The translations under genes were made by a program, and so were the position numbers. From contig RSEE01000019.1 of the NCBI GenBank assembly GCA_003971905.1, positions 1 through 64,000 of the forward strand: a stretch of 64,000 bases of DNA. The letters run 5' to 3'. The first letter of the stretch is position 1; each line of letters starts with the position of its first letter. This document shows positions 2,041-59,047 of the stretch, one piece after another. The notes under the pieces were generated by a model. That model had not been told where the DNA came from. It did no database searches and worked only from the letters and a program-made list of their open reading frames with translations. Source of the DNA: Moniliella sp. 'wahieum'. Lineage: Eukaryota.

Positions 2041-4637
2041 ATGTCGGGCACGTCCAAGTACGCCCCCGCCGCCACCAGCTACGCTGCGGCCGCCGGCGCC
2101 GCCCCTGAGCCCGCCCCTCCAACGCCTCCCTGGGCGCCGCCCCCACCGACGACCCTTTCCCCCCCCTCGGCGCAGCTGTCGCGCCGCCTGTCAGTGGCGT
2201 CACCATCGTCTCTGCTGCCGAGGCAGCCGAGTCGGGCCCCAAGGAGGACACCACCGCGTGGCCTGCCAACCCTCACCTGACGCAGCCCTTCCTCTTTCTC
2301 TCTCTCCCACCTCCCCGCCCAGGCCACCAAGCACGACCTGGCCAACCACGTGTTCCAGCACTGTCTTCCTGTCAAGTTTGATCTCACCCCATCCCCCGCA
2401 TCCGATGCGGCGGGGGTGGTCCACTTTGACCGCATGTTCAATGGTACGTCTCCTACTCGGTCTGCCCCCACCTTTGAGTCCATGTCGTGGCTGGAGGGAC
2501 TGACATTGACACCGCGCCTGATTGCCAGCTGAACTGGCCTACGCCACTATCGACTCGCCCCATCTCTCCATCCGTCCCCCTCGGAGGCGGACCCCGAATC
2601 CCAGTCCAAACGTCGACTCTTCAAGCAGCTTCCTCCTTCCACCTCGCCCACCGACCTCTTCCGCCTGCTGCGTCCCTATGGCCCGCTGCGCAAGGTAACC
2701 CTGATCATGACCAACCCCAAGACGGGCCAGCACACTGGCTTTCACGGCATGGCTACCGCCGACTTTTATTCCGAGGCCGATGCGCAGGTGGCAGAGCGGG
2801 CGCTGCATTGCGCCAATCTCGATGGAAACACCATCTCTGTCTCGATTGACACCACTGTTCGTTCTACCCTTGACATTCGTGCGTCGGCGCCCGTCTTTGT
2901 CCCGCGGATCCATACCGCTGCTGAGACCGGGGCACAGACGAGCATGTATGCTCCCTCTGCCGGCTTCCCTACCTCGTCATCTTCCTTGCCCCAGCTGGGT
3001 TTGACTACAACTACCTCTCCTCCCCGGCCAGTCCTTTGCCCCCAGCCTCCGGCCCACGCAAACTCATTGACCCTTGCAACCTATTCATCAAGAATTTGGC
3101 GGCGGGCGTGACCAGCTCGGACCTGTACCAGGCGTTCACAGGGTACGGAGACATTGTGTCGGCTCGGGTTATGCGCGACGACCAGGGCAACAGCCGTCAA
3201 TTTGGGTTTGTCAGCTTCAAGCAGCCGGACGAAGCGGACGAGGCGATGCGCGGGATGAATCGGCGCAAACTTCAAGGCAAAGCGATCAGCGTGAGCTTGC
3301 ACGAACCCAAGATGCTCCGCCAAGAAAAGTTGGCAGCCAAATTTGCTGCGCAGAATGGGAGCGGTGCTCTGTCGCCGGGGGGTTGCCGCGGAGCAACTCG
3401 ATTACCTCGAGTGGAAGGGACTCGAACGATGGCGCGTCGCGCACGAGCGAGCCAAAGCGTACCCCCAAGTTGCAGCGCAAGCCTTCCAACTCTTATTTCC
3501 GCGCTGCCATGGAAGCCGACAACCGCGGCGAAACGTATACTGTGGCGCAACTGACCGCGCTGAGCGCTTCGGTCCGCAATGAGGTCTTGGCTGGTCTCTT
3601 GGCGCGCCGGATCAGAAAGTTGCCTGGATTCGATGAGGTGGCCGCAGAGGAAGGCGTGTACCACCAAGAGACGCCCGAAGAAAGCTTGGCTCGCCGCCAG
3701 GCTCTACTGGCCAAGGCTGCCCGCGGCGGCGAGGCATCGAGTGACGAGCCGGATCAGATCAACTGGACCGACGAGGAGGTGCATGAGATTGTAGAGCAGC
3801 TGGTTGCCAAGTTGTCCCTTGCCCAAGCGGTCGAAGCATTGGAAAACCCCGAAACGTTGCTGCGGCATACCCTGCACCATGCCGTATCCGAAGACGTTCG
3901 TCCGCTCACCCCGCAAGCCATGAGCCAACGCACCCACTCGTCCGACTCGGTCCGGGACACGACCCTGGCCACTTCCCTGGACATGTCCGCCGCCAGTTTG
4001 ACTCCGGACCTCCGCCCGCCCGCGCCGCAGTCGGGCGTAAGCGAGCGGTCCAAACTGTTGTCGGCGGTGCGTGGATTGGGCCTCCCCGTCGCCTTGGCGG
4101 AGGACATTACGGGTCTGCTCGTTGACCTGCCCAAGAAGGAACGCGCAATGTGCCTGTTCAACCGCGACTTTCTCATTCAGAAGGTCGAGGAGGCACGCGT
4201 CATTCTTACCCTCAGTGACGATGAGGAAGAAGACACAGCTTTCACCTCTTCCGCTGCGCCTTGTCCTGCCCCGGCACCTACTCCCATGCCTGAACCGGCC
4301 AAGGAACCTAAGCCCGACCTAACTACGCTGGCTGCACTCCCCGCGGCGCAGCTGGTGGAACAATTGCAAGCGGGTGCATTGGCGCCTGAGGTGCTGCCTG
4401 CCTCGCCAGAGCAGTGGCAGGCGACCGAAACGTTTGTTGTTCCTGGCCGGCTTGGCAGCGAGCGATGCCAAGCAAAAGTTGGGCGACCGGGTGTTCAAGG
4501 TGATCAAAGCTGGAGGAATCAAGGGCGCACCCAAATTGACCATTGCCCTGCTGGACTCGGAAGACTTGCGCACCCTCGCTCATTTGGCCGACTCGTTCCC
4601 CTCGGCCTTGCGGGCCAAGGCACTGTTACTCAAGTAA
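2041..4637 (+). CDS. rrm4: Rrm4-like RNA-binding protein (3 RRM domains + C-terminal MLLE/PABC-like domains), endosomal mRNA transport
   Basis: RRM3 reads IDPCNLFIKNL...IVSARVMRDDQGNSRQFGFVSF...LHEPKMLRQEKLAAKF. RRM2 reads GFHGMATADFYSEADAQVAERALH. The C-terminal MLLE reads KQKLGDRVFKVIKAGGIKGAPKLTIALLDSEDLRTLAHL. Intron 2444-2528 (GTACGT..CTGAC..CAG). Several frameshifts. Confidence 0.9.
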
Positions 4638-5054
4638 GCACTCGGTCGGCGTCGGCCTCTGCCTCTACCTCTGCCTCTGTCTGCTCTAGCTCTACTCTAG
4701 CTCTACCTCTGCCTCTCGCTCCGTCTCCCATTCTCGTTTCTTTCTTGGTCTTTGTCTTTCTTCCCATTCCTGTTTTCGGTGTCTTGGCGCCCCAGTACCC
4801 TTTTTATCCAATTTCAGTACCCTTTATCCACTTTCCCCATCCACTTTCCCCCCAATCAACGTTCCCCATGAAGTTCATGCCATCATGCGTCAGGCAGCCT
4901 CAAAGTTATATGTGATGGGGCTATGTGAATCGTTCCGGCCTCAGGCCTCAGGTCGAGTTGTGCATCAACCCCCCCAAAAAGATGAACGTTGAGTACTGAG
5001 TGCTGAGTTGAAAATCTGTAGCCACATGGAATCCGATTGACCTCGTCTTGCTTC

Positions 5055-13167: not shown

Positions 13168-13851
13168 CACCTATATACCGTATTACCTCCTCCTTTCTAT
13201 CAGCCTTGAGTGCCGTCGTCATGCCAATAGTAGTATGCAGCGCTCTCTGCCCAGTCTATATACCATTCAGGTATGGCATCATGGAAAACTACAGTGTAGA
13301 AGAAAGGCCAAGTAATAGCCCTGCGGTGACTGATTAGATGGGGTGCGGGCTTATAGGGTGGCAGAACGGGGGCGCAATGGGTCAATGTACTTCGAGGGGG
13401 GGGGCGGGGGCTGCGAGGCACACAAAAGTGCATAGACACAAAATGGCATTTTTTCCAAGCTCAACAGAGCACATCTCGACGGCTTCCGGGTTTGGGTGGT
13501 AAGAACCAAGCAAGCGTGGTTGATGGCGGTGGGACGATCGTGGCCGGGACGCATGCCGCGGGTTTGTGGACTGCGTAATGGAGTCGTGAACGTGGAGCGT
13601 TGGGTGTCGTTTTGCGTTATTAACCTCACTTTGAGAGTTAGCCGCTATTAATTAGCGTCGTGGACCAATTGAGCCAACATAGATATTTGAAGCGGGCGGA
13701 ATGGGCGGAAGCGGCGGGCGCGATCGTGTTGCGCTCCAATTTCCAACCCAACCAAAAATCGCATCTGGGCCGAAGCGACCCGCGACGAATCCGCGACGAA
13801 TCCACGCCGACGTGCCCACCACCACCACCTTGCTCCAGCTGTCTGCCCGCC

Positions 13852-15748
13852 ATGGCGTTCAACTTCAACAGCAGCGCCGCCAAGCCCGCAGGGGAAGCGC
13901 CCAAGTTCTCCTTCGGCGCTCCTGCCACCACTACCGCGCCCGCCGCCAGCGCCCCCGCCGCGCCAGCTACCACCTTCAGCTTTGGTGCCGCACCCGCCAC
14001 CACAACTGCCGCCCCAGCTGCTGGCAGTCTCTTTGGCCAGGCTGCCAAGCCGCCGCTGCCCCTGCTGCCGGAACCGGCCTCTTTGGTCAGGCGGCCAAGC
14101 CTGCGGCCGCGTCTACGACCGCGCCTGCTGCTGGCGCTGGCCTCTTTGGTCAGGCGGCCAAGCCTGCGGCCGCGCCCGCTGCTGGGGCCGGCCTCTTTGG
14201 TCAGGCAGCCGCGCCTGCGGCCGCGCCTACTGCTAGTACGGGCCTCTTTGGGCAGGCAGCCAAGCCCGCTGCTGCCCCGGCTAGCGGGACTGGACTTTTT
14301 GGTCAGGCCGCTACCACCCCAGCGGCAGGTACGACTCCTTCCTTGTTTGGCGCCAAACCTCCTGCCACTACCGCCGCTGCCGGGCAGCGGCGGGTGGGAC
14401 CACGCCCAAACCTGCTGCTACGGTTTGTTTGGATCTACTACGCCTGCCACCTCGGCCGCTCCGGCTCCGGCTCCGGCTGCAGCTGCGGGAACAGGGCTGT
14501 TCAACTTTGGAAGTAAACCGGCCAGCACACCTGCCACGACTGCTGGAACTACCACCCCTGCCCCGGCGACCGAAGCCGGCGTCAAACCCTTGTTTGGCTT
14601 TGGGGCTCCGACTACCTCGGCAGCTCCGGCTACCACGGCCCCGGCCGCAGAGAGCAAACCTGCATTTAACTTTGGTGGACAGACTGCCTCGGCTGCCTCT
14701 ACAGCTCCGGCGGCGGCGGCGACCAAGCCGGCCCTTAGCTTTGGTGCCCCCGCTACCTCTGCGGCTCCTACAACTACAGCTGCGCCTGCCACTACCGCCC
14801 CGGCCTCGACTCCTGCCGCTGGCGGGCTGTTCGCGCCCAAGACTGCGACGGCGACAGCGACAGCGACGCCGGGGACAACGACGACGCCGGCCACTGGAGC
14901 TACTGCACCTGCAGCGACTGCTGGTGCGACGACCGGTGCACCGGCTGCGGCAGGAACGACGACCGGCACCGGTGGAGCGACGACTACGTTGGTCGCGCCA
15001 GCACCTTCGCAGTTGCGTGGGCGCAGCATGGAAGAAATTGTCAACGGGATGAACGCCGAGTTGGAGAGTTCGGTGCGTGCGTTCCGGTCGCAAGCAGCGG
15101 AAGTGGCGTCGCTGGATAGTGTGCTGCGAAAGAGTGGAGCGGCACTGGGTCAGCTCGACACGGAGCTCCACGCTGCGGAGGCGCGGCAGCATGCGCTGGG
15201 CCAGTCGTTGGATGACATTGAGGCGGAACAGGCGGCGTTGTCGGCACTGTTGGACCAGTATGAAGCTACATTGCAGGGCGCCCAAAAGAAGGGACCGTTT
15301 GCTTCGCAAGGCCTGGCCTCGTTGGCAGATGCCGATGCGGGCCTGGCGAATGCCGAGCGGGAACGAGCGTACGTTGCATCTCCATGCTGCGGTCACTGTG
15401 TGATGTGATGGGAACAAGCAAACTAACATGAGATATGCGCAGCTACTCGTTGGCCGAAACGCTCAACCTCCAACTGGACGATGCGGCACGCAACGTAGGT
15501 GGGATCATTGCGCAAGTCAATGCCCTCACCGCCCCGCCACACACGGCATCGACGGGAGCAGGAACGAGCGAGGAGCTGAACGCGGTGGGGGCAGGCGAGG
15601 AAGATGCAGTGGCTCAGATCGCCGCCATCTTAAATGCGCACCTGGGCTCGCTGCGTGGGTCGACGAGACGGCAACGGCACTGCGCGACCGCCTGGCTGCG
15701 CTCCGGAGGGGACACACCGATGCGGCGCAGCCGTCGTGGCGGCGCTGA
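13852..15748 (+). CDS. NSP1: FG nucleoporin Nsp1/Nup62
   Basis: FSFG/GLFG/FNFG repeats, then the Nsp1_C coiled coil PSQLRGRSMEEIVN...ERERAYSLAETLNLQLDD...QIAAILNAHLGSL. Intron 15369-15442. Confidence 0.93.
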
Positions 15749-16285
15749 GCTGAGGCTCAGCCCTGAGGCCAGCCTTGAGGGCGTGTGATGTGTGGCGTGT
15801 CCGCCTGTGGCAACGTCGGGTGTGCTAACGCGGTGCGTCCGGGAGCGTTTGAGCACACGCGGGCATGGCCTGGCAGGGGGACAGAGAGCGGAGGATGTGT
15901 TTCGCACAAGAAGAATTGTACAAGCTTTTGTCCGGCAGCCGTTGCAGCTTGAAGAGGGGTGGAACGGGGGGATGTAAGATGGGAGAGCGCGTGAGGCTCA
16001 CGCCTGAGGGCCTATGGACACCAGACAGCAGCGACAGAGTCCTCTTCTCGTCTGACGAGCAAGGTTAACACGTTAACCGTTAATCGATGTTAATCGTTAG
16101 TATCGGCCATCCCCAGTGATGGAGCCGCGCAGCGCAGCGGGAGTCCCGAGGGAAGAGAAGCGTCGGAGCCCCTCTTGCACAGTGGCGCTGCGCCTGGGAG
16201 CGGCAGTGCCGAACCCTAGCTGGCTACAGCTGGTGTGCAAGGGGGGAGCACAGCGCCGGCAGCTGGGCAGTGTGTTCCATGTGTC

Positions 16286-16294
16286 GTATATAGG
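16286..16294 (+). promoter_or_regulatory. Candidate TATA box upstream of the HD1 gene
   Basis: TATATAGGG about 315 nt upstream of the ATG at 16601, followed by a pyrimidine-rich leader. Confidence 0.35.
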
Positions 16295-16600
16295 GCAGTG
16301 CGACACGGGCCCCGTGCGGCCAGGGGGGATGTGCCTCTCCGGCGCTTCTCTGGTGCCTCTGTTGGGCTACTACTCGGGGGCTACTCAGTACTCAGCTGCC
16401 TACTCAGCTGCTCCTGTGGTGCTCCTCTGCCCTCGCCTGCCTCGCCTGCCCGCCTCCCCCCCCCTCGTCTGCGTCTCCCGTCTTGCTACCACCCCTGCGC
16501 TGCACATTGCCGCCCACTCAGCTGCCCGCCCAACCCATTTCGCCCGTCCTCGCCCGCTCACAACAGAGCGTTCGTCACCCCTCCCCCTCCCCCAGCCACC

Positions 16601-18340
16601 ATGTCCGCCCCACTCCACACCCTTTCAGCCACACCCTTCTCCAGATCCCCGCCGATCGTGCTCCCAACTTGTGCCATCTTCTTTCCCATGCCGATGATGC
16701 CGATGCTGATGCTGAAGCCGATTCCGATCCCGATCCCGAGGCCGATTCCTTTCACCCCTCGTACTCCGTCGGCCCCTTCGATCCTCCTCCCGATCCCGCT
16801 TTGGCGCCGCTCGCCATTTGGGCACGCGCCACCAGCCAGCTCCCGCGCTTGGACAATCAGCGGCGTGACTACTTTGTCGATCTGCTCTCCCGGATCGACA
16901 CTTCCTCTCCCTCGACTGCTGATGAGCCCACTGGTAAGACTAGTACCAATAGTGCCACATACCAGGATGCTTCCGAGTCGCAGGTGTCTTCCGCGATCCT
17001 AGCCCGCGGCTGTGGATGGTGCAACACTTTGATTATCTCTTCCCTACCAATGAGGAGAAGACCCTGATGCGTGAGAGCCATTCCTTCACCCCAACCAACA
17101 GCCTGTCGGAGAAAGCACCGACGTAGTGGCAGACGGTACGGTTCCACAGCTGCTACGACCAAGGCCGATATCCGACGTGCAAACAAGGCATTGATCAGTG
17201 GTTCACCAATTCCCGCCGTCGCCTGTTCTGGACCACCTTTTACCGCACCTACGCCAACGAGGACCGGGCCAAGATGAAACGCATTACAAACCAGTGCTGG
17301 TTGATGCAGGCTCTCATCCCTTGGGGCGTGGAGGGGAGGAAGGGTTGGACCATATCGACCCAAAGAGCATGGACGATCTACGCTCCATCCTGGCCCAGCC
17401 CGTCAATGCCAAACCAAAAGTACTTCGTAAACCGTCCCAGTCCAAGTCGCGCAACCAGCCGCAAGGCAAATCCAAGTCGCGGATCAAAGAGTCCCCCATC
17501 AACCTGCAACAACGCACAGCTAGTGCCGAGACCTGTTTCGCCGACTTTCAAGAGGTGGTACGTAACATGGCCATGTCGGATGTCGAACGTGTCGGTCCCT
17601 GGCTCGATAAAGTCAACCGTCAATCCTGCTTGATATATGGCACGCCTTACGTCGGCCCTGTGTCCAATGTCGAGATGGAATGGAGTTTACGTCGAATGGG
17701 TGCCCACACGTACAGTCCCGAGCTTGACGCCGATTCGTATGTTTTTTTTGTTTTTTGTTTTTTTCCCCTATCCTCTGCCCCGTTCTCCCCATACTGACAT
17801 ATCTTCCATCTCTCTTTCTCTTTCAACAGAGTCCCCCGCTTCTTCACCGGCAACAGCCGCCTCGTCCAAACCAGGCAACAGTACCGGTCACACATCTCAA
17901 CGCGAATCGGAAGCGTTTCCCAGTCCCAAGAATCCTAGCACTGACAACCTTTCCACTTGGCCATATCATTCAAGTGGCGATTCATCCGATCTTAATAGTA
18001 GCTTAAGATATCCCCAGCCGATACAACTGACCGATCTACCGCCCACCGAAACCTCCCAACCATCTAGATTTTTCCCCCCGGCTTTCAATCCGATGGTCAC
18101 GAACCCGTATGGCTTCCGCCAAGCTATGACGAACCCACATCTGAGCATGTCTACTTACGGGTTGAGCCTACCCCCAGAAGAGATTTACAGTAACAATATC
18201 GAATTTCCTACGCTTTGGACGGAATCAGAAACCGTAACGGCAGGCCCCATGCACATGTTCCTTGACCCCTCCGTCCCCCAGCCCTTACTCCCTGTTTTTC
18301 AACTCTCTCTCCTAGGACCTTTGAGCTCCCCCCCCCCCGC
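16601..18340 (+). CDS. bE: HD1-class mating-type homeodomain protein (bEast-like)
   Basis: Manual translation. 17010-17069 gives LWMVQHFDYLFPTNEEKTLM (HD1 helix1/2, W...F.YP..EEK type). 17190-17290 gives IDQWFTNSRRRLFWTTFYRTYANEDRAKMKRI (HD1 WF.N.RRR..W plus the EDR..MK stretch of smut bE). Downstream ERVGPWLDKV resembles the bE constant-region EKVGDW motif. Intron 17737-17829. The 3' end is uncertain. Confidence 0.85.
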
Positions 18341-19361
18341 CCCACAGGCTCCTCTTCGTCTTCTCCCCCGTCTTCTCTCGTCTTCTTTCCTTCTCTCGTC
18401 TTCTCTCGTCTTTTCTTTCGTCATCTCTCGTCCTCCTGATGGTTCAGTTGGCACGACGGTGAAGTACCAACGCCGATTTTTTTTTCACATGGATCTTCCA
18501 CGAGGAAATAGTCAGTTAGCTCATCCTCTCTCTCCTCGCTCCCCTACCCTGCTATCTCTCCCCACAGTCCCCGCTGCTCCTATGTCACGCTCTCTCTTAC
18601 ATATATACGTCGGTCGCGATGGCAGGTTTTTGCACCAGTTTTTCAGCCACACCATTCTATTGCAGTTTCGACGGCCTGATGTGCGTGTCACAGTTCTTAC
18701 CCCCCCCCCCCCTGTCTATCTGATCTCATCTTCCCTCTTTTCCCCCACCGCAAATCCATATACTGCCGTTCGCCCTGCCCTGTTCCGCCTTGCTCTATAC
18801 TCTTCCTGCTGGATCTAGCTCCGTGCTCCGTGTTGTTTCTGTCCTTCTAGTTCTGGCCGGTCCCACAGCATCGACATGTCATGTCCTCGTGCGGTTTTTT
18901 GGGGGGGGGAGGCACACATTATTGCTACCTGGTACGTAGATATTGTACTGTGTTTGTGTTGCTATAATTATAAAAACCCATCCGTGAAGTGACTACTACT
19001 AGTGACTTGTGAGTACCGAAACGACGGTGCAGAGCAACCCAATGTACTGCAAATATACGCTGCCACATTGCAGGCGTCTATATACTTCTTTCTTCTCTTC
19101 GTTGCGTACACACATTACCGGATTCGGGGGACAGCTGTAGAGGATACTACCCCCTTTTCGGCGCACTTGGCACCCCAGAGTACTACCTATTTCAAACCCC
19201 AGATCCGACCGAACCGAGGAGCGGCACCAGCTACAATACTACCTAATACCAACGCAGCTGTACATTGCTCGATCAACTGTGCGGTCCACAGAGGAGCAAA
19301 GGCGGAGAGAGTAAAGCCTATCATTGGATGCCATGTTAACAAGAAGTGCTAACAAGCCATT

Positions 19362-21229
19362 TCATCGATCACCAGGGTGGGGGGGGGGGGGGGGGGGGCA
19401 ATCCCATCTCATTGCAACAGAAGAAAAAATACCGTGGGAAGGAACCGACGACAGAGAGCTCCCTTCCTCCCCATTTGCAGATGTGTATGCGTCACGTTTG
19501 ACTTCCGCCGTCGTAGGCGGCCGGGGATGAAGGAGGGAAGGAATGGGATTGGCAAAGATGGGATTCGCCGCCAACGTACTCACAGGTCCAAATAACTTCT
19601 CCGCCACCACATTCGCTCGTACATTCAGTTCCTTCCACATTCGTACCTCCACATCTTCCCCCCGCCAATCCCTTTCCCATTCCCTGTATCGGTACCGGTA
19701 CCGGTAGCTGTGCTCCTACCGGGCTCCTCCTCCCGCGGCTGCAGCAGCACGTCCCCCGGTACATCCGCCATCGAACCCACATCTTCCTCTTCTTCTTCCT
19801 CCTCTGCCCCCGACACGGCATCTCGCAGTTCAACACGAGCAGAAACATCGGTTGCGGTACACTTGCACTTTCGCGCGCTGATAGGCGTCCCCAGCCCCGA
19901 AGCTAGACTGTGGTGACTGTTGCTCACGCTCCCGGGCGTATGCGCCCGTGCGAGGGTGGCGTATAAGCTCGTGTCTTGCCCACTAGCGGAAGCGTAAGTA
20001 CCGCCCCCAATTAGTACCAGCACAAAGTCAGTAATCCTTACACTTGGTTCTCGGTGCCTACCCCCCCCCCCCCCCCCGCCCGCTTTGCCCCACAGTACCA
20101 GACCAAACAACACAAAACACCAACACCAAACACCAAACCCAACCGAGAGGGAGAAAACGTACCTCGCACGTGTTGAGCAAGGGGACGATGCGCTGCGGCG
20201 GGTCGTCCGGCGGGGGGCATCGGGGTCGGCGCCTACTGAGCCAGAGGATCGCGAACGGTCTGCCTGATCCGATCGGGTAGCCGGGACAATCATACCGGGA
20301 TGCAAGATCGGGCCCTGCTCTTCCTCCTCATCTTCTTTCGATGGCGACGGACTGGGATCGCGTTTCGCGTCGCGCTCGCGCCCTCCAAAGCCCATCGCAG
20401 CAGCTGGCGCAGACGTAGGCGTCGGCATCGACATGCCCATCCCCATGCCCATCCCCGTGCCCATCCCCGTGCCCGTCCCACCGCACGCGACGATCGAACG
20501 TCCGCGTCGTACACTTTGCGCGCCTCCCGGTCCCTTTCCTTTCCCTTTCTCTTTCCCTTTCCGTCCCATCCTCCCGTCCCACTCGTCTGCGTCCCCGACC
20601 GCGACCGACCCGTCGGCGTCCGATCCCGTTCTCGCCGTCCCGATCTTTCTCCTTGTCCTTGTCCTTGTCCTTTGGATTTTCCTTGTCCTTCTCCCGCTCG
20701 GCGGTACGCGCAACACTGCTTCGTGCGCGGGCGCGCGCGGGTGGCAGCATGCGAATGGCAAGGTGACCTGTAGAACTAGGATAAGGGTAACGAGACTGCA
20801 ATTGCTCCATAGCTTGGCGCCACGAAAGTCGCGACCGCACCTAGAGCTTGGACCCGCTCTTGCCCCGTTAAGGAGTCCAGTTCCTCCGCCCCGCTCGGGG
20901 TAGGTAGTGGCAGCCCAAGCGCCGGCGAGGATGGGGCACCATCAGCCCACGAAGCGACTCGGCCACAGGTGTAAATCCCCTCCACGCGCCTGGAAGCACA
21001 GCCTGCGGTTGTGCCTGGGCGGGGGTGTGGGTGTGTAGTGGGTGTGCGTAGGGCGGGCGGCAGAGGCAGCTTGACGCTCGTCGGGCACATCGAGCGCAGT
21101 GGCAAACGCATAGACGGCGCCGCTGTCAGGGAGCACGATGATGGCGGTGTGCGGTGTGCCGGGCTCAGCTTCGCCAGGCGCAGCAACGCTCTTGGCCAGA
21201 ACCGAGGTGAACTTTTTGATGCGCACCAT
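19362..21229 (-). CDS. Roadblock/LAMTOR2 (Ego3-like) domain protein with very long low-complexity insertions
   Basis: Motifs in the roadblock order: MVRIKKFTSVLAK; HTAIIVLPDSGAVYAFA; ERVQALGAVA; WKELNVRANVVAEKLFGPV. Intron 19983-20162 (GTACGT..CTGAC..TAG). Confidence 0.5.
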
Positions 21230-21673
21230 GGGGGGCGTGCAGACAGGCGGAGGGGGCGGCGAGGACCAACGAGGAGGCTCTATCGACGACGCCATATCGA
21301 TCCGCGCGCTGCCATCGACCGCCATTCACTTTGAATCTCGACTGGCTGTCAGAACAAGGAGACTGCCGGTGCAACCTCCCGCCTGCGCGGGTTCCGCTGT
21401 GTGTGTGTGTGTTCCGCCTGGCGTGTGTGCTGGGTTGGGGGGACAGGGGGGTTAGGGTTGGGCGGGGTGGTGACGTGAAAGGTGAAACGTGCAATGGGAT
21501 CGGGTGACCAGTGACCGGTGATGTGCGACTGTGTCGTGTGTGCGGTGTCATGTGACAGACATGCGACGTGGCATGCGTGGCATGTGGGTGGTTTCGAAGG
21601 GCGCCATGCGCTGATGCCGTGCTTGCGCTCCGACATCGATATCGATCGTCATCAATGGGGTCAGCCGGCCAGA

Positions 21674-21726
21674 CCTGAGGGGCCTGAGGCCTGAGGCCTG
21701 AGGCGTGAGGCGCTGAGGGCCTGAGT
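21674..21726. repeat. (GCCTGAG)n heptamer cluster in a divergent promoter
   Basis: cctgaggggcctgaggcctgaggcctgaggcgtgaggcgctgagggcctgag. Confidence 0.8.
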
Positions 21727-22226
21727 TCGATCATGCGCCACTGGCCATGGGCATTGGTAATGCTGGGTTGAACGTTTGAATGTGGATCCGGCGATCATTC
21801 TGGCGTGCTGCGTGGGGATGCAGATGGCCTGCGCGTTGGGCAGGTGGGCCGAGCGGTGTGAGCGCCGCACAGCTGGGCGTTCCGCCCCCGGGGGCTCGCG
21901 CTGGTTCCGCTGCGCTCCGCTCGTCACGCAGCGGTCTGGTGCGGTGGGAGGCCAGTCACACAGAGCATGGGTGATGGGCCCCGACGCCACGCACGCGCCA
22001 ACGCCCCAATTGCAATTTCCAAAACGAGGGACCGCCCTGGCGTGGCACGAGGCAGGCTGGGCGCCGGCGCACCCAACCCCCGCCGCTGCCGCCCGTGCGG
22101 ACAGTGCCTGGCGTCTACGCCCGCCCGTGGCCGCCACCGGTCTTCTTATAAGCCCTCTTGGCTGGGTCTGTGTCCTCATCCTTCCCTCCCCGCTGCTGCT
22201 CCCACACTCTCCTTTCGCTGCCCACC

Positions 22227-37690: not shown

Positions 37691-40600
37691 TGTTCTGCAA
37701 ACATGAGGGTCTGCCGTCAGTAGCCTGATGGGCCTCACGCAGGGAAGGGGGCGCTGCCGCAAAGGGCACAAAGAAACGAGCAAGGCAAGAGAGCATTGCT
37801 GCTGTGGCACCGTGCGAACGAGCCAAAACAAGCGAACACTCTCAAGAAGGATGCCGACGCACCTTGAGTCTGGTTGGTGGGAATCTAGCCCAGTTCAGCC
37901 GTTCTTCGCCCTCAATTGAGGCGGAACGCTGAAAGAAGGGTAGTAGGGTTGCATATATGCTGCGGCGCAATAATTTGCGCCACGCTTCACATTCATACAC
38001 AGCTTGTAATAACCCTACTGTATTAAAGGATAGTGCTAGGGTTCTGAACGCCCCCCGAAAGAGCAATTGATCGGTGATTTACGTCAGTTGGGCAGATTTG
38101 TTCCGCGCGCTCCCCCTGCTCGCACCATATTGCTTCTCTGTTTTCTGGCTCCTTTCTTGTAGCATGTTTGAAGGCGGGTGGTTTGCCACCATGCCTTGTT
38201 GCATGCCTTGGGGCTGATCCCTTCTCGGCTTCTATGCCGCCAATGAGTCAGACGTAAGGCCACTGAGTGAGAGTGTGCTCATGGTGGTATGAACCTAGAG
38301 TAAACCCGTGCAGTTGCAGCCAATGCCTTGGATCACATTCCCGTTTCACCAGGATCACTCTGCCTACTAATGTACATGGCACTTCGACGCGCTCGCTTCC
38401 TCTCCTCTCACTGTTGGGGCCATTCCATTCATGTACACAACTAAAGAATTCTTGGCAGTTGTACATAACGTAAAACAGCACAAAAGGGGCGCCGAGCTCA
38501 ATACCCGGCTCGCTCATCTACTGGCGAGTGCACCGTTATAATAGCTCGTATCAACTTAACCAGGAAGCCTGTCGTGTGACCCGCTGATCAAGACCCTTTC
38601 GCACCTACCGTTCTCTTCCAAACTGGATGGAGGGGGAGTGCTGAGGCGATTGAGCACCCGGCATGCATGTGAACGAGGGATCATCTGCAATGAGGCGACT
38701 GTGTGACTCCTCCCTGTAAACATCTTGCCGATGCACAAACATCTTGTTGACCGTCTCGAGGCGTGTCAGTACCGTGCCATCGATAATTGCCAAGGGGAAG
38801 AGCGGCTCTTGAGTAGTACGCCCGTGGTTTTTGCTGTTATTATTACCTTCCGTTTTTGCTCCAACAATTGATGCAACTCCTTTTCCCCATGTCCCATACT
38901 ATGCAGTGCTGTCTCTTGGTGTATTACCGTGACCTTTTCCGGTACGCAACTTCAACCCCCCTTCACAGCTGAATCCGTCAAGGTATGCCCCCCCCCCCCC
39001 AGCCCTGATCCTCCAACCGCTCCTGATCCGATCACTTGGCAAATTCCGTGTGCCTGACCCCTGTCCCCCACCCGCCTCGTTTCCACTTCTTTCACCGCGT
39101 CTGGAGTCGCCCCGTGTTGTTGATCTTACTTCTCTGCATCTGATAGCAACCCCGAGCGACGCTAGTCGCCCCATGCCTGTTTGCCTTACCTTTCTAGGCT
39201 GTCCGTGCGGCAGCCGTCTCCCCTGTTCTCCCTGTTCCCGTTCTCCCTCTGTTGCCTTGTTTTCTTTTTAGTCCCTGTCTGTTAGCAGTGGTTCATGGTT
39301 TTCCACCACGGTCCATCTTTGTCCTCCCTTCGTCTTTGCGTCGCCCCTCTTCGCCTGTTCTCCGCTTCACCCCCTGCCCGCTTCTCGCCAATTGATTCAG
39401 TACAGGCAACTCCTCCCGCTCTTAGTCGACTTTCTACTCCCGGCGCAGATCGCCAGCCCTCGTCCTTTGTCCTCAGTACTCTCAGTACTCAGTACCCCTA
39501 GTCCGCGTGAGCCCTCTTCGTGCCACGCCTCGGTCCAGCCCAGTTAGCCGCGTGGGATACTGCCCTTCGCCACGCCGCTCCCCGTCTCAGCCCAGCCTCA
39601 GTTCAGCAGCGTTGGTCCTCCGCTGCCTTCCCCTTCCCTGAGCCCGAAGGCTTCAGACACGCTACTGCCGCCCAAGCCGGTGCTACGCAGCCTCGCCACA
39701 CTTGCAGCCGCCTTGCTATAAGCCGAGAGGCCTCTCCTTGTCCCTAGCTCCGCAGCGGAACCACCAACCAGCCCAAGCGCCTACCGTGAGTCGTCCTTAG
39801 GACCTCCAAGGGATTGTACCCCTTAAACCCCGGGCGAGCCCCTGGCGGCGCCCGCCCCATGACAGGAGACTCGGGCAAAGCTTCTGGTCTCCATCCACTG
39901 TGAGGGTGCGGGGGCATAGACCCCGCCCAGATGAAAACTGGTAGCCTTCTGGGAAATCAGACAAACATGAGAGCATCTGTCCTGAATGGGTTGTCCACCT
40001 AGTTATCCACCCGCAAAAGGATTATTAAGGCATCGGAAGCGTTCAGAACGTGGAGGTCAGTATTATTAGTTGGCCGAGCATACTAGGATAGATGCGCCTG
40101 TGTAAGCAGGTGCCGTGTGCCCCCCCAGCGAACCAGTTGGGTTTTCTGTCAGGCTATGGGATGCCAAAGCCTTATTCCAAAGTAGGACGGACGGGAGGCA
40201 CATATCCAGAATTGTAGGGTGCTTGGGCACCAAATGAATCAGGGGTATGATAAGCTGGACTTGCCCTTAAATATACCTCACTATCTTCTCGCACGGATCG
40301 CAGGTGGACCAGTACACGCCAATGAACTTCTTGCTTTTGCGGAGATACTAGCACTCGAGGGCGAGTCAGACGGGCTTGATTGTTGGCGATTGGTCCGGCA
40401 GCGACCAGACTCCCACATAGAACGTACCGTGCTGCAAATTGGCGCAAGTACTACGATGCCGAACCGTGGAAGATACAAGTGCTTGTGATACTGAACCGTG
40501 TCGCGTTACAGTGTTGGCAGTTGAGCCACCGATGACGAGCAGCTTGTGCGAGGTGAACAGGTGTCTGTGTCCGGAAGTGACTTGAACTGATGAGGCCTGG

Positions 40601-43600
40601 AGTCCGGATGGTCCTTGAGGGTGATGCAATCGCACTGGTGGTGGTGGTGGTCTAAGCCAACCAGCAACGCCTACAGAGGAACAGCAAGCAGCGAGTCGCC
40701 ACCAGGGGCTAAGCTGTGGAACAAGGAAAACAGGAAGAGAAACAACAAAACTCCCAGGCCTGAGGAGGAGCTGAAGGACATTGGCCAAAGCACGAGCCAC
40801 CCGATTGCTCAACATGAACTGTTCTGTCCGTTTTCACTAGGTCACTACATGTTGCATAGTTGCATGGCAATATTGCTTCGCGCGAGCGACCCTGCCCGCA
40901 CGGGCTTCAGCCGCCTCACGTCGCAGGGCAGCACAGCATGCTCTCCAGCCATGCTTCTGTTTTTGGGGGTGATGCAGGATGATCGCTGAAACAGCGGCCC
41001 AGACCTCAATTTGAGGTGTACAGTCATTCACGCTCCGCAAATCTCAGCTCGATCGACCCCTGGGAATCCGACCCTGTGGGGTAGCGACCACACAGCTGCA
41101 TCCCTTTTAGGCGGACTACATGCCCCCGCCCACCACCTTTCCCGCCATCATCTTTCTGTTGAGCCACTACTGACACTCTACAATGCCTCCCTCCCGCACC
41201 GTCAGGCCACCCCACAGTAACCAGCAACGCCGCTCGCCGCCCGAGGGACACACGACGCATCAACCCTGCGCCGGAGCCCGTGGTGGAGACTGCTTTCGAA
41301 GGTGAAGAACCGTCCCCTGAAGAACCACCAGGTGGCACCAGTGGGCTCAACAGCAATTCCGCCGGCGACTCCGAAGGCGGAGAGGGAAAGAGGAGTACGA
41401 AAACCGAGAGTTACGTTGTAGTCCCTCCTCCCCCCCTGGTTCCGTGTTGGTTCGTGAAATGATTATGCGGGGTCAATTGAACCAGCAGACGACAACGATG
41501 AACAGCGAAGAAGTTACGCTGGATCTTGACGCTGACATCTTGTTCCTCCGCACAATGGACTGATGAAGAGAGCTCCGTTAATCAGGGCGAATTTGCTGGC
41601 ATTCCCCCTCTGATCTGGCCCTTTCGCCGGAGGAAGGGTTCCATATTTCACGGATCCGCTCATCGTTACAAGGGCAACAAGCATCACTCAGCGAGGAAAG
41701 CGTATGCGAGATCAAGACTCTTCGGGTGCTCTTTTTGTCAATAACAATGCGAAGCAGGAATCGTTGGCCAGGGGCTTTACTATGTCCAACCCACGCCAGT
41801 ATTTCGAACGCTTGCTGGAGCACAAAACAGGTCAGGGGACCATCAGCTCTCGTTGCACACTCCAGGATGACTTGTACTATACTGACACTTTCTCTATCCA
41901 TGAATGGATCGCCACTAACAGACTAATGGTACAAATGGCTCGCGGTATGGGTCTGTCTGCATCCCGAGAGCAGGATCGGCAACAATAAGGATTTAGGCTT
42001 GGTTTTACGTCCGCAAGCGGCTTGTTCCCCTCGAGGTCTGGAAGAGTGCACTTTTGACCCGGGAAGACAACTCCTGGCCCATATCGGTCGTGTGACAGAC
42101 GGTTTGTCCAAGTTCTGTTGACGGTGTTCCTGAAGCCGACTTGGTCGACCATGACGTTTTTACGCTTACACTGGTTATGGCCTTGCTTAACCCTCTAACC
42201 TAACCCATTGCTTTGGAGTAGAAGGTTAATAAAATGTGGAAATAATGCATACTTGTCGAAGCCTCTGGCACGGCTTTTTCCTGTGTAACGAGGGATGTAG
42301 ACTTAGCATTAAACAGGTGCGAATTTCTCGGATATATAACCCTGGCGCAAACACAAGGTTAAGCTAAGTACTTCTATTATAGCGAGATATGAATAATGGC
42401 CAAGATCCACTACAACTTATGGCCGGCGTGTTTTTATGCCAGTTGTTCCGGGAACTTAGATTCATCCTACAAACCCCGCAGCCATGCAGGTGACCGGAGG
42501 TCTCGTCAATCAGTCAGTACGGCTCCCTATACCCTCCCCCCCATGTCAACGGGTGTCTGACTGACCACATCCACGTTGACTGTACTACCTAGTCTACTGC
42601 ATCAGTTGCACAACATTCTTGCTTGAGTGATGAGGTCCATCGTTCTTCGCTGTGTCAGGGGAGGGGCTCAAAAACGGTTAGCATCGTTGGCTATCCCTCC
42701 GAGCTGGACCGTCCGCTACTGTACCCACAATGCGTATTATGCGCGCTATGGACTTCCTGGGAAGCTTGTGATATCATGGTCGCTGCCAGATCAACACACA
42801 CCTGTTGAGAGCCGTGTTACCAAAGAAGACTGGGGCGCACAGCTTGCTCTCACAACTACCGGGAGCGGCCCAGGCATGGTTACATCTCAGACTGAAGTCA
42901 CTTTCTCCCTGTTTCTTCATTGGTGCCGGTGAGCCTGCTACACTCGGGCGGAAGTGGAGGGGATGCAATCAGGAGGAGAAGGCGCTCCCTGAGCGCAACC
43001 AAAGAGGAGGGACAGCGGCGGCACAAGGCCGATTCTTCACTCAAGAATCTCATTGATCTCGCTTGACTCCTAATTAACCCTGAGACCAGGGTACGCGCCG
43101 ATGCGCGCGGGTAAGGCTTGATGCGGTGGATCTCATAATTAAATAAGGTTTTTAAAAGCAGCGAGATGAGGGGCACCATCATTTCGGTCGGTGAATCCGG
43201 TACAGCCCCCGAACTCAAAAGAGATCCATAGTTGTCTGGAGCCGTTTTTGTACTCGGGGACAGGAACGAGATAGGGGGTGTGCAACAGCGTCTGGCAGTG
43301 GGGTTGATCTTGAACGGGAACCAGGTGGAAACCGAGTCTACACCAGCCTTGGACCGTGAAAGTTCTCCACAGTTTAGATTCAGAGGAACACCGGAGCACT
43401 GAGTGGTTGGCAACCTGGAGCGGCGAAGGTGGCACCTATAAGCCTAGAGAAGGACGAGATGTCGGTATACCGGATGGATTGACGAGGGTGGAGAGGCCAA
43501 CTGATTGCCAAAGATCGGTGGTCAAGAGCCAAGGGATCATGGGGAATTTGTTCCCCCGAGAAGGGGGGAGGAGTTCCTCAAACTCTTGCAGCCCCCCCTA

Positions 43601-46600
43601 AAAACCCACTTCCCCACAACTTGTCAAGGGCTGCGCTGGATCTGAGATGGGCTATCCAAGCTAAAGCCCGCCTGTTCTGCACATGCTGTGTGGCTTAATT
43701 GCGTGCTACACTGGTGACACGCGACCAATGGCACTGCAGCAGCAGTGTGCTTTTCTTTTTTCTCCCTTCCTCTGAAATGGGAGTATAGCTTTTGTGGGAG
43801 CTATGCAATGAACATGATGACTTTACCACCTCCATCTCCAGTTCGCTACGCCATACATCACGTTTTTGCCTCCCAGATAGAGCAATACTTTAGGGATGAA
43901 ACATGACATAATAACTTATCGAGCGTCCTCAACAAGGCGTATATTGGCCAACATCTCCCAGCGTGTCTGTCGGACAGCAGAATTGAATGTGATGTGGTTT
44001 GATGACAGGAGGGGGTCTAGGCCCAGCAGATGAGAAGAAGAAGAGAGACGGATGATGGGGCCCGGCACTGGGCTGGTGCGGCGACATTGGACATAACCGA
44101 ATCTAGATTCTGCGCTAGTCGGGCATCTAAATCATCATCCCGGTCTCACAGGTTCCCCTGGTTTGACCTGTTGAGTGAGACGCCACCTGCGGCCCAGCCC
44201 ATTCCGCCTCCGGTTTATTCCGGAGTAGATCTTCCCGAGACTTCTGCCCCCAGTAATTCATTTCCGTAGTCCACCATCTCCCTCCTCACTGGTAGCAGAC
44301 CGCTGGGCAGATCTCCTCCGACATGACCCGGCTGTGGACACATTTACTGCAGTCTTTTTTTATTTCTTTCTGACGCTTACTACAGGTGTTTTCTCCTTTT
44401 GTGTATACTACCACAATCACTCTACATTATTCTGCCAGAGGCCCCCTCAACCCATTTTATTTTCACCTTGAATAAAAACAAATAGAATCATCTAGCTGTC
44501 GCACAATACATACATTATCCACTCAGCTCGTCTCGGTGTCACCCTGGACAGCGCAGGTGTTGCTGAGGTCCCCTCACTTCAAGTCGATAGACAAAGGTCG
44601 GCGTGGTGCCATTGATGTTGGGGCGATGCCCCAATCACGCCATCCTGCGTGATAGTCATCACCCCTCTCTTTCCGCCCGGAAGCTTCCTCAGCTCCGCGG
44701 TACCCTCGTCTATATAAGGCCCTACCCTTCTCATAGCCTCCTGTACCTCTCTGAGAACCACATCCTCCATTCCACTCCTTCAGCAATTGACCTCAACGAT
44801 ACTGGTGTCTGCCATTGTGATGCTGCGCATGTTGCATCCATTCTCTCCAGGATGGCTCCATCTAGCCCTATGCATAATGGCGGTGACTATGGAACAGGAG
44901 TCCTTACAGTAACATGTCCACAGTGGTACATTACAACAACAGGGCATATACATTAGGGGCATTTTTTCAATATGCTTTGAATCATGGCAGGTATTGATGC
45001 TCTAATGCACTGCCAGTTCGATCGTCGATCAGAGACAGCTTTAATCAGTTCACAGGTTAGAAACGTCTAAACAGACAAAGTGTGGGTGATGACGGACTTG
45101 TTCAAATCAGCTATTAACTGGGGTGAGCGTTCCGCGCACCATAATTTCTGTTTCGGACTGCCAATTGGTGAAGCGCTGAAGTCAAACTTAGGCGCTCAGA
45201 GCTCAGTTGTCTTGCTGGATCGGATGCTACGCAGTCTTTGTGCGTGGCAGAAGACAATTGGGTTGCCTCCATAGATTCCGCTTACGCGTAAACGGAAAGA
45301 AAATGGAAGCAGAGGAGGGAGATGGATGAGGGGGCACATCGCGCTGACCGATTTTGAATTTATTTTGACAACAGATATTCAGAACCCCTGGAAAATTCAT
45401 TGTGGAAGAATATCCCTCCATGAAGATGGAGACATGCTATGTTTATTTGTTGTTGGGGCTACGATGGATGAATCATGACCTATATACAGTCAACATATGG
45501 TATGCTACATGTCCACAGCGAACACATTTACTCCCAGAATTATAATGACCCCAAAGCAATACTCAGACCCAGGATTGTGGCCGCGGGTCTCCTGGGGTTG
45601 GTGTTATGCTGGGACGCTATGGGTACCGATGCTCTTGTTCGCATCCAAGAATTATTTTCCCTTTTGTCTTGACGATGCGAGGATACTATGCAAGAAGAAA
45701 GCAGGCAAAATCCCCATGGTCTGGAAGGAATTAACAAACGAATATCAACGGACATGGTTCACCACTGGGATATCTACTATGTTCATCCGTACCCACAATG
45801 TTATCTAGGGGGTATGTGAACTGAAGACGGCCTCCAGAGGGTCTGTATGTCCCGGTAGGCGGTTTCCCTGTTTCCTCAAGCGGAGTTGGCGGTATCAAGT
45901 AGGACACGCAGGATGAACGGGTCGGTTGAGGTGCAGCGGTTCTTTTCTCAGCGATAGGCTCTGTTAATAATATGATCACGGCATAGGAATGGGCACAAAG
46001 CTCGTTTCGTCGCTCGAATAGCTGTAAGCATAACTAACGACTGAGGGTGGGGGAAATGAATATCCTGGGTGCCTACTTAATCATTACATACAGCATTTTT
46101 CACAACTAACTGATAAACGAGAAACATCTCCGTAGGTTCATCTGAACATATGGAGGGTGCTGACAGAAGCGTACAACGTATAGCACAGCGTGCGATAGAT
46201 GTCACTCTGGTCACAGTGTGGCAGAGTGGTAAGGTACTAGGATATTGCTAGACGTGCCTCAGTTGATCGGTGACGCTTGCCAACCAGGGTGGAAGAGTGG
46301 AACTCGCTGGTAGCCCACCCCCTGTTCTAACGCTATATCTCCTGTCTCCGCTGTCTCCTTCCTTTAGGGTGTTGCATAAATACTCGTTGCTCATCTTTTA
46401 TCTTCTCAGCAAGTCTGAAAGTTGGTTTGTAGCTGATCCGTGAGATCAGGGGTGGGCTCCCAATCGCACGCTAGCACATGCTTTCTGGGCAAATATTGGA
46501 TTCAGCAACTATTTTGACTAACTTCAGTCATACGTGTAATCTTTAGCTGACAACAGTATTACCCTGTCGACCCGATTTGGGAATAAAGACCAACAAAGTA

Positions 46601-48099
46601 AGATGCATAACATTATTTTAGGGTAATGGCTACTGAAACACTAATTTGTCACCGTTTCGCTGACCTTATACCCTTGTCCAATCGATTTATCCCAAGCATC
46701 TCGGTTTTCCACGTTTTTATTATATGTTTACATGGGCCCTCAGCAGTTCAGTAGAACCCCTCTGGGGGACACCTCTCGGCGTATAGCAGATGGCGCTTGT
46801 ATGGCAAGGCTGCGTAGGTAGGATTTTCTTGGTCAGTTATACGCTTCTAAATCTGATATCCGTACTCCGGGTGTGAATAAGGGGCAGCGTAAGAAAATTC
46901 TTCCATGTGACGGGGATCAGTGTAACGGGAACCGGGACTGCATGACACGTCGAGCTCTTAGCGACTGAAACTATGCTGTAGCTGAGAGATCTACTAGGGT
47001 TATGTTGGGTGCCAGCAAGAAGGCACTGGAGAGAACAGCGAGTCAATTACTAAGGGGGGAAAGAGTTGCCTGTACCGTATACGGACAACCAAACTATCAA
47101 GAGAGGATGGAGGGAAACGTAAAATGAACAAAGGGGAGTCGTCACCATAAGGGTTGGCCGTTCCCCACCATTCCTCGTAGGCGGGGAACAATGAAACAAC
47201 CGGTCCAGCTGGGGCCCCAGGTGTTAAGGACAAACAATATAGACAAAAGGGCACAGTCGTCGCCAAGGATTAAAATATGGTCGATGATAGTCGCCGCTTT
47301 GGGCACCTACGGACATGGTACGAGTGCCCCACTATTACCGTGAGACTGGATTGGGGTTGATAGGAGTGAGTGTTGCTAGAATAGGACAAAGGATCGCGCA
47401 GGAAGACCGTAACAGCCTGGACGCCCTCGGGCCTCACAGTTACTTCGAGCAGTTTTGACTCGGCAGTGACGCGCTGCCCGTGGAGCAACGCCCCCGGTTC
47501 ACTCCTGTTGACCTGCTCGTTGCGTGCGACCTTTTCCACTAGCAGTGGGTGAGCGCAACCCGGCGCATAGGAGGCGTTGGAAGAGTTCTGTGACAGGTGA
47601 AAGGTGGAGGGGGAGGCCGCCATAGATCGGGTTCGATCTAACCTAGCGCAGTGAGGCCCGTCTGCTCTAGCCAGGAGGCCGCCCAGATTGAGGGAGGTGC
47701 GATTGGGGTGGCCACATGGTGAGTGCCAATTCACAGGGGGAAAGGGACTATTGTAGAGCGGATACGTAGAATGGTGATCGGGCGGGTCGGCTCGCTACCC
47801 ACTATCGGACTGAATTGGATTTGGGAGTGAGCCCTATCGTTGTAGGTAGAGCAGACGGGCCTTAGCAGAAGAGATCGATCGGATCAGTCCGATTGTACCC
47901 GATGACCATGCAGGATGGCCAACCTGGGGACGGAGTTAGGAAGGGAAAAGGAGAGCGCGTAGGCTCCGTGGGCCCGCCTTCGCGGGTGATACAAGGCCAC
48001 ACCCCCACTACCTGTATACCTGCATTGGCATGCATCTCAAAAGACACGTCCTCTATCTGGATATATATGGGAAGACGATACTCTGAGGAAGGGATCATC

Positions 48100-48978
48100 G
48101 ATCCGTCATCGATCTTGATTCAAGCGACACAGCATGGCAGGATGCAGAATTGGAAATTGGAGCGAGCTTAGTCCTTCGGTGACACATATGCATAGAGCTT
48201 TTGAATTTTCCCAATTTGGTTCTTGAGCTCTTGGCACTCTTCTTCCTCGTCCGGGCCCTGAGGAGGCTCAGGGGGACCGCTGTCCGTCGCCTTGCTACCA
48301 CGAACAGGAGGGTTCGCTTCTTATTCGTCTTGCGGCAGATCAAGTACAACAAAAGTCGGGTCGACTAGCACAGAAGTAAGGGTACTTAAATTCCCACATG
48401 TGGCCAAACGTTTCGAGGCTGACGGTGCTTGCTGACAGACCAAAGAGTTGCTTGAGCCAGGCAGGCTCTTTTGTGATATGTTTTCGAAACCGAGCTTGTC
48501 GAGTGTGCCGACAAAGGATGCAAAGCTGGAGTACTTTTTTTGAAGCCGGTGCGAAGCACCATACTTGTAAATTGATCGTCGTTCTGCATGCAATCAACAG
48601 AGCATCGTAGCACAGGCACCGAAGTCTTTGTTCAGAACCCTCACCCAACAATACAACACATCAGAGTCAAAAAGAAAGAGAGCATTGACGTACAACAATC
48701 AGAAATGAGTCACCCGTAGATGGCCAGCGCACGAGGTGGTTCCACGCACCATCTTCGAGCATGTCAAAGAGCCTGCGGACAACACGAGGGGGTTTGCCCT
48801 GTTGGGACCCTTTCTTCTTTTTCCCATTTTGGCGCTCGTTCCCCGGGTGAGTATGGCCGGGCGGGGAGGATAAAGTACTTGGCTCCGCCTCCAGATTGCC
48901 TGGCGGTTGTGCGTTGGAGGAGGAAGGCTGGTAGTATACTGCAGTGGTCTGCACCGGGGGGAGAGCAGGTGCGCACAT
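48100..48978 (-). pseudogene. Degenerate or highly divergent HSF-type DNA-binding-domain gene (HSF/Skn7-Prr1 family)
   Basis: PPRVVRRLFDMLEDGAWNHLVRWPSTGDSFLIV | intron 48584-48693 | NDDQFTSMVL...SSFASFVGTLDKLGF...MWEFKYPYFCASRPD..YLICRK, then a coiled-coil-like EEEECQELKNQIGKIQK. At least 3 frameshifts. Pseudogene versus assembly error is unresolved. Confidence 0.7.
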
Positions 48979-58719: not shown

Positions 58720-59047
58720 CGGATCCTTCGTGGTCGTCGGAGCGCAGAAGGCAGAGCGAGCGCTGGCCGGCCAAACATTCTCGGGTCCATTCCGCCGCGG
58801 GCGGAACTCAGGTGTGGCGGACCTCGCTTGAAATTGCGGTTGAAACGTAAAAAAAAAAACACATCCCAACCATGCGATGTTGCACTGCAACGACCAGAGG
58901 GTTATGACTGCTACTGCTAACTACTACTCCTACTGCCCATCCGCGTCACCTGCTAGCCCCTCGCTTAGGGTCCGTGGCGTTTTGTGTTGCATTCCTGGTC
59001 GCGTCTCTGGGGGTCCCGGCCTCGGACGCGCAATACCATATGCCAGC

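Follow-up and report, generated by a model that had tools for sequence, protein, structure and literature searches.

A bE-type homeodomain gene without an adjoining bW partner in a 64-kb stretch of Moniliella DNA

We describe a homeodomain (HD) gene of the bE (HD1) family that stands without a divergent bW (HD2) partner in positions 1 to 64,000 of contig RSEE01000019.1 from Moniliella sp. 'wahieum' (GenBank assembly GCA_003971905.1); this whole 64-kb stretch is referred to below as the window. The bE/bW heterodimer acts as master switch of the dikaryotic phase in smuts and related fungi, a phase that in pathogens is also the infectious one, and the back-to-back HD pair is among the most conserved gene arrangements of basidiomycetes. 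Here, the gene upstream of bE is the nucleoporin gene NSP1, which lies on the same (+) strand and ends 852 bp before the bE start codon, and inside the window there is no bW, nor any sign of a pheromone/receptor (P/R) locus. The bE gene is alone across the 16.6 kb before it and the ~45 kb after it, and it lacks the divergently oriented HD2, at most a few hundred bp away, that marks a canonical HD locus. We see about an even chance that the genome carries bW outside the window, either as the other half of a split pair or as part of a canonical pair to which this bE is an extra copy.

An earlier note on this DNA had claimed an HD1 gene without a divergent HD2 partner, about 850 bp from the stop codon of an NSP1 on the same strand, in a relative of the smuts. 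These observations agree with what we measured, from the interval (15749-16600) and the strands of both genes to the absence of an HD2 motif from 64 kb. The interpretation placed on them finds partial support: the HD1 identity, the smut affinity and the lack of an HD2 in the window stand, and the possibility of a duplicate bE copy and the single-base errors of the assembly had been overlooked. The finding is a bE family member in an arrangement that is unusual but not unprecedented.

The homeodomain gene as a bE orthologue

The homeodomain was detected by Pfam in two halves. The fragment at 17013-17123 matches positions 1-26 of the Homeobox_KN profile (15.9 bits) and the fragment at 17166-17285 matches positions 27-40 (17.0 bits); together they span the whole profile without overlap, and each alone falls below the 24-bit Pfam cut-off. 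The gap-free alignment of helix 1, RLWMVQHFDYLFPTNEEK, with the MEIS and PKNOX homeodomains is a weak match (E ~1.3). The features of the three-amino-acid loop extension (TALE) class are present, namely a three-residue extension between helices 1 and 2 and the motif WFxNxRRR in helix 3. The conceptual product is ~480-490 amino acids (aa) long, with the homeodomain ~120 residues from the N-terminus.

The bE assignment draws on an alignment of 18 bE proteins, from 16 species plus two extra copies in Meira (PMC7766764, Fig. S1). As depicted there, bE proteins keep helices 2 and 3 apart by a long, variable loop and have, immediately past helix 3, a block that reads WF[IT]N.RRR-S.W-T.F.R.[FY]-A..[DE][KR]..M and, in most of the 18 rows, a C-terminal block C..[FW]..[IV]....[EK][RK]VG[DP]W that lies ~95-150 residues past helix 3. 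Three bE blocks occur in the window gene in collinear order: helix 1, then WF.N.RRR..WT.F.R.Y-A..DR..M, then C...ERVGPW. The post-helix-3 block, RRR-LFW-TTFYRTY-ANEDRAKM (17196-17285), is by eye nearest to the Violaceomyces row of Fig. S1, and the C-terminal block, TCFADFQEVV...ERVGPWLDKV, begins ~128 codons past the W, with ERVGPW identical in the Acaromyces row. The loop from K to W is 31 residues long when a predicted 45-nt intron is removed, and 46 codons, including a TAG, if it is read through; the same stretch, counted in Fig. S1, has 31 residues in Ustilago maydis bE and 25 in M. globosa. Because the long loop and two bE blocks outside the homeodomain match Fig. S1, the gene reads as a true bE/HD1 orthologue and not as a generic TALE factor of the Cup9/Tos8 type, in line with the HD1 label it had been given before.

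Similarity searches added little to this comparison. Word-based homologue searches with the homeodomain fragment returned no homologue at E <= 0.01 (65 candidates) and none at E <= 10 (one candidate). A search of the PDB with the helix-3 fragment gave 0 matches, a search of the ESM Atlas gave no usable match, and neither a bE piece nor the C-terminal domain of NSP1 retrieved a relative in metagenome scans.

Search for bW and other mating-type genes in the window

Published bW proteins carry ...QV.IWFQNRR[NH]R in 16 of 16 Ustilaginomycotina, preceded by ILE.A[FY] and NIT.AEK..LA..TGL (PMC7766764, Fig. S2). The bW helix 3, IWFQNRR[NH]R, was not found in any of the six frames of the 64 kb, whole or piecewise. 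A six-frame scan of the window with the broader pattern W[FYLM]x[NH]x[RK]x gave one site only, the WFTNSRRR of bE itself (17199-17219), and four looser homeodomain sub-motifs, also in six frames, added nothing homeodomain-like. Eight loose patterns for pieces of bW matched at 16 dispersed sites across the six frames; different pieces never lay less than 400 nt apart on one strand, save for one chance pair on the strand opposite bE. At the DNA level, a degenerate IWFQNRR pattern with up to three mismatches matched once, at 54301, where the translation is VWFQSSS with a stop codon just upstream; its context is not that of a homeodomain, and a match of this kind is at chance level, with at least one occurring in 27 of 100 shuffles.

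Profile searches covered the same ground. Among the 432 open reading frames (ORFs) of at least 80 aa in the window, Pfam found 0 matches to a homeobox or to STE3, and 0 to DEAD or Helicase_C. As to a second homeodomain, this silence is weak evidence because the same pass missed bE, whose homeodomain is split. A more permissive pass (E <= 1) over 116 ORFs, 98 of them of 28-79 aa overlapping 15.5-21.9 kb and 18 longer, had the helix-1 fragment of bE as its sole homeobox match. Between 37.9 and 51.7 kb, 148 of the 160 ORFs of 42-79 aa were scanned (the 12 outermost were dropped), with no homeobox and no STE3 found. Six small ORFs in the window end in a CAAX-like motif, and none of them is like a pheromone precursor. 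The Cryptococcus-like arrangement that the earlier note had offered as one reading has no linkage support, in that neither STE3 nor a pheromone gene occurs in the 16 kb upstream of bE or in the 45 kb downstream of it.

The interval between NSP1 and bE, where an HD2 gene would have overturned the claim of a lone HD1, holds no gene and no homeodomain relic by Pfam on ORFs of at least 28 aa and by six-frame motif scans. A bW as long as those of the published alignment would not fit into its 852 bp. We presume that it simply comprises the 3' flank of NSP1 and the promoter of bE. All three matches of the window to GTTAAYCG fall inside one 25-bp stretch of the interval, and this cluster may be a candidate regulatory or binding site; their total is not unusual, with at least three in 30 of 100 shuffles. 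A scan of the interval for promoters and terminators of the bacterial type, a kind of scan not relevant to a fungus, gave 0 matches. Downstream of bE, the stretch 18301-21860 contains no homeodomain relic by Pfam and motif-piece scans.

Gene structure, neighbourhood and sequence quality

The features of the window are collected in Table 1; the gene map comes from Pfam searches of all 432 stop-to-stop ORFs introduced above. NSP1 is recognized by Nsp1_C (72.2 bits, ORF 13642-15405, +) and Nucleoporin_FG (44.2 bits, ORF 13683-14513, +). It begins with MAFNFNSS at 13852, contains a single predicted intron, near 15381-15443, and three or more frame changes, and closes with the last-exon tail ...WVDETATALRDRL...SWRR, which ends at 15745 and is followed by the stop codon at 15746-15748.

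The bE coding region starts at an ATG at 16601 (+) in a CCACC context. Exon 1 reads MSAPLHTLSATPFSRS in frame 1 (16601-16648) and ADRAPNLCHLL...STADEPT in frame 0 (16651-16932). All three bE introns are predictions from sequence. For the loop between helix 1 and helix 3, we enumerated every GT/GC-AG pair that joins the two helices in one stop-free frame, which gave nine solutions. The alternative to the 45-nt intron runs from GTGAGA at 17071 to CAAG at 17163. The predicted 45-nt intron appears the most bE-like of the nine; it would excise the in-frame TAG at 17124-17126 and leave the 31 residues from K to W counted above. Across intron 3 the frame is not closed, with a mismatch at the C5 run 17833-17837, and the 3' end of the gene is uncertain, the frame staying open to 18818 through CT-rich sequence. 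Third-position GC periodicity is too weak to fix the frames in this low-GC gene.

Table 1. Features of the 64-kb window, in order of position.
Feature	Position	Strand	Length or remark	Basis
PAB1	2.5-4.9 kb	+		Pfam
MAK16	5.0-6.2 kb	-		Pfam
API5	6.8-8 kb	+		Pfam
MFS transporter	11.8-13.2 kb	+		Pfam
NSP1 nucleoporin gene (FG repeats and Nsp1_C)	13852..15748 (13.85-15.75 kb)	+		Pfam, ORF translations
Intergenic interval (NSP1 3' flank and presumed bE promoter)	15749..16600		852 bp, GC 0.643	
Three GTTAAYCG (TAAT-core) words	16072..16096	+	~500 bp upstream of the bE ATG	
Homeodomain gene (bE/HD1), TALE class	16601..18300 (16.6-18.3 kb)	+		Motif comparison with Fig. S1 of PMC7766764
bE exon 1, N-terminal variable-domain region	16601..16933	+	frame change at C4 run 16647-16650	
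bE predicted intron 1, GTAAGA...GCAG	16934..16983	+	50 nt, links frame 0 to the homeodomain frame	Read from sequence
bE homeodomain helix 1 to helix 2, PRLWMVQHFDYLFPTNEEKTLMRESH	17004..17081	+	TALE spacing	Homeobox_KN
bE predicted intron in helix 2-helix 3 loop, GTCGGA...CACAG	17105..17149	+	45 nt	
bE helix 3 and bE-specific post-homeodomain block, QWFTNSRRRLFWTTFYRTYANEDRAKMKRI	17196..17285	+		Homeobox_KN, Fig. S1
bE G4 run, frame 2 to frame 1	17333..17336	+	GLDHIDPKS in frame 1 from 17342	
bE conserved C-terminal block, TCFADFQEVVRNMAMSDVERVGPWLDKV	17531..17614	+		Fig. S1 comparison
bE predicted intron 3, GTATGT...AACAG	17737..17829	+	93 nt	Sequence reading
bE Ser/Pro-rich C-terminal region	17832..18290	+		ORF 17634-18815, frame 2
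Stretch without recognisable gene, microsatellites	18301..21860		~3.5 kb, between bE and LETM1-like gene	
LETM1-like gene	21.9-23.8 kb	+		Pfam
Whi5-like piece, LSM gene, SLA1	29-34 kb			Pfam
Mitochondrial S11 gene	37.2-37.8 kb	-		Pfam
Lower-GC block without family matches	38-51 kb		13 kb	
TPR gene, mL23, HEM13, SEC24	52-63.5 kb			Pfam

The broken frames of bE are not peculiar to it. HEM13 (coproporphyrinogen oxidase; ORF at 58968-60431, -) aligns without gaps to a relative of 83% identity, yet does so by passing through frames -3, -2, -1, -3 and -1 within ~400 nt (four jumps, 59096-59510). The domains of SEC24 are scattered over six overlapping ORFs (61230-63492), PAB1 (2533-4912) has its MLLE domain in two frames and its RRMs likewise, and the FG repeats and the C-terminal domain of NSP1 (13642-15748) lie in different frames. 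The assembly evidently carries many single-base indel errors and is unpolished in appearance. Because such indels break even essential genes, the reading frames of the window are not to be trusted, and the frame breaks of bE are uninformative on decay. No sign of structural error was seen: the window is free of N, no repeat family occurs at the interval, and the base composition is continuous across it.

The window, which is fungal DNA, has a GC content of ~60%. The closest named relatives of its HEM13 are those of Tilletiaria anomala (55% identity) and of several Tilletia species (51-56%), followed by Ustilago, Sporisorium and other Ustilaginomycotina. With Tilletiaria and Tilletia as the best named matches, protein comparison places the organism as a smut relative, as had been claimed before, and it looks Exobasidiomycete-like. 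The top HEM13 matches overall are P0001 and P0002, proteins from public read assemblies, with identities of 64% across the full protein and 83% across its first 263 residues. Over those residues they are far nearer to the window HEM13 than is any named species; therefore a close relative of this fungus is present in public data.

Base composition departs from its surroundings in two places. The first is a low-GC island at 16601-19600, where bE has a GC content of 0.548, vs 0.63-0.675 in its flanks, and the next 1.3 kb (18.3-19.6 kb) one of 0.522, vs 0.63-0.68 around the island. Homopolymers abound in the downstream part of the island, among them a 20-nt poly-G at 19379-19398. In the stretch between bE and the LETM1-like gene, a long ORF at 19628-20941 (-) is of low complexity and matched no family. 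The second is the block at 38000-51500, with a GC content of 0.47-0.56 (one 1-kb bin at 0.60) vs 0.58-0.68 elsewhere in the window. This block has zero family matches among ORFs of at least 80 aa and one weak Ribosomal_L32p match (E 0.0087) at 43627-43800 (-), and long ORFs are almost absent from 42-47 kb. It could be gene-poor DNA, a centromere-like region or a set of diverged genes. The TPR gene at 51.8-54.5 kb had been considered as nat1, a gene that neighbours the b locus; this was dropped, only generic TPR families having matched and no NatA-auxiliary family.

Where the partner may be, and comparison with known loci

We take this to be a real bE of an Exobasidiomycete-like smut relative, which in this assembly stands alone between NSP1 and 3.5 kb without recognisable genes, and propose that its partner bW lies elsewhere, the pair having been split by rearrangement or the gene being an extra bE copy beside a canonical pair. 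HD1 proteins are active only as a heterodimer with the HD2 of another allele (PMC7766764, PMC6730849, PMC10262431). By analogy, the product should function as other HD1 proteins do: it would be inactive alone and would become a transcription factor only once its N-terminal domain pairs with a bW from another allele. The location of bW outside the window is suggested by three published observations: all 16 surveyed Ustilaginomycotina genomes carry both bE and bW (PMC7766764, section 3.3), asexual Pseudozyma retain both genes (PMC10262431), and Meira miltonrushii, an Exobasidiomycete, has three bE genes, two of them extra, unpaired copies (PMC7766764, section 3.3 and Fig. S1). In most of the 16 species a DEAD-box helicase gene is described as a neighbour of bW/bE, with six exceptions named (PMC7766764), and the absence of one from the window fits a non-ancestral position of bE. 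Also in favour of the proposal, no collapse-prone repeat flanks the interval.

Several points weigh against this proposal. With six of 16 species lacking the helicase synteny (PMC7766764), the absence of the helicase is weak evidence. The bE blocks were compared with Fig. S1 by eye and unscored, and a phmmer search with the 139-aa piece that follows the homeodomain, against 1.84 billion representative proteins, found no relative, its four matches all being spurious repeat proteins. As a gene model, bE needs three frame changes (at the runs at 16647, 17333 and 17833) and a 45-nt intron that removes a TAG, and it could be a decaying gene. The low-GC island could resemble a long non-recombining, possibly idiomorphic, mating-type (MAT) segment.

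Four other explanations were considered. If bW had been lost from the lineage or strain, the lone bE would be the remnant, possibly a pseudogene, of a decaying b locus in an asexual or self-sufficient fungus. The lack of a bW in 64 kb, the three frame breaks with the in-frame TAG in the homeodomain loop, and the 3.5-kb stretch without recognisable genes after bE speak for such a loss, and five Ustilaginomycotina species are reported to have a truncated bE or bW gene (PMC7766764, section 3.3). We nevertheless regard it as unlikely: essential genes of the window show frame breaks of the same kind and density, which makes assembly errors the likely source, all conserved bE blocks are intact, and both genes are kept in the 16 of 16 genomes surveyed (PMC7766764) and in asexual Pseudozyma (PMC10262431). 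Those same assembly errors bear on the idea that bW truly sits beside bE and that a segment was dropped or misjoined near 15.7-16.6 kb. Base-level quality is demonstrably poor, which speaks for it, but the errors seen are single-base frame shifts and not structural, and the window lacks N and any repeat family at the interval, has continuous composition and carries orderly genes on both sides; we judge an artefact of this kind to be very unlikely.

A system with one HD gene per mating type, in which bE occupies this place and bW the same place in the opposite type, would fit the solitary bE and the ~3-kb low-GC island over bE and its downstream flank, and single-HD alleles are described in Cryptococcus, Trichosporonales, Wallemia and one Microbotryum (PMC6730849). 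The known cases set out there have fused HD and P/R loci, however, whereas the Pfam passes found no STE3 and no convincing CAAX pheromone precursor occurs within the window, and the literature examined holds no case from Ustilaginomycotina, which makes this arrangement quite improbable. Its unfused form, an idiomorphic HD locus between NSP1 and the LETM1-like gene with bE here and bW in the partner strain, we hold to be slightly more doubtful again. To our knowledge, factors of the Cup9/Tos8 type have a compact TALE homeodomain without bE-specific blocks. A non-mating TALE factor of that type, which would never have had an HD2 neighbour, is compatible with Pfam matches that are to the generic Homeobox_KN with each half under the gathering score, with the failure of word-based and phmmer searches to retrieve a named bE, and with the missing b-locus synteny. 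It has the slimmest chance of the four in our estimation, given that RRR..WT.F.R.Y-A..DR..M, C...ERVGPW and the long loop are common to the published bE alignment (PMC7766764, Fig. S1) and that the place of the homeodomain, in a protein of this length, is that found in bE.

What the solitary gene means depends on the rest of the genome. If it is the only HD gene there, it would point to a new way in which Ustilaginomycotina simplify their mating system, or to the loss of sex among them; an unfused idiomorphic HD locus, if true, would make this the first mating-type allele with a single HD gene in Ustilaginomycotina and the first to have arisen without MAT fusion. If bE has merely been split from bW or duplicated, it would be one more case of the known MAT diversity of Exobasidiomycetes. 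A word-based literature search retrieved no account of a bE that is both sole and unpaired in Ustilaginomycotina, which is not proof of absence. The earlier note had held that the MAT architecture would be atypical under any of its three readings. Since unpaired extra bE copies are reported in Meira miltonrushii (PMC7766764), finding one bE alone in a window does not of itself make the MAT system atypical.

Compared with known systems, the gene most resembles the bE of U. maydis and its orthologues in the 16 genomes, with which it shares the homeodomain ~120 residues in, the long variable loop, a similar length, the post-homeodomain block and the later ERVG[DP]W block (PMC7766764). It differs from published bE genes in having no divergent bW adjoining and no DEAD-box helicase nearby. 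Its helix 3 reads WFTNSRRR-LFW, in contrast to the WFIN, WYIN or FFIN of 17 of the 18 rows of Fig. S1 and to the S.W of all 18 (PMC7766764), and its Asp/Pro-rich N-terminal region could not be aligned by eye with published bE. With the single-HD alleles, namely SXI1/SXI2 of pathogenic Cryptococcus and those of Trichosporonales, Wallemia and Microbotryum violaceum caroliniana A2, it may share the restriction of the locus to one HD class per haplotype (PMC6730849), the window itself holding one. The loci of Cryptococcus, Trichosporonales and Wallemia are fused HD-P/R loci (PMC6730849), and all these alleles belong to other subphyla; here the 64 kb contain no P/R gene. Meira miltonrushii offers a further parallel: in contrast to that species, the window has no receptor and no second bE, and in both an Exobasidiomycete bE is found outside a single canonical bE/bW pair.

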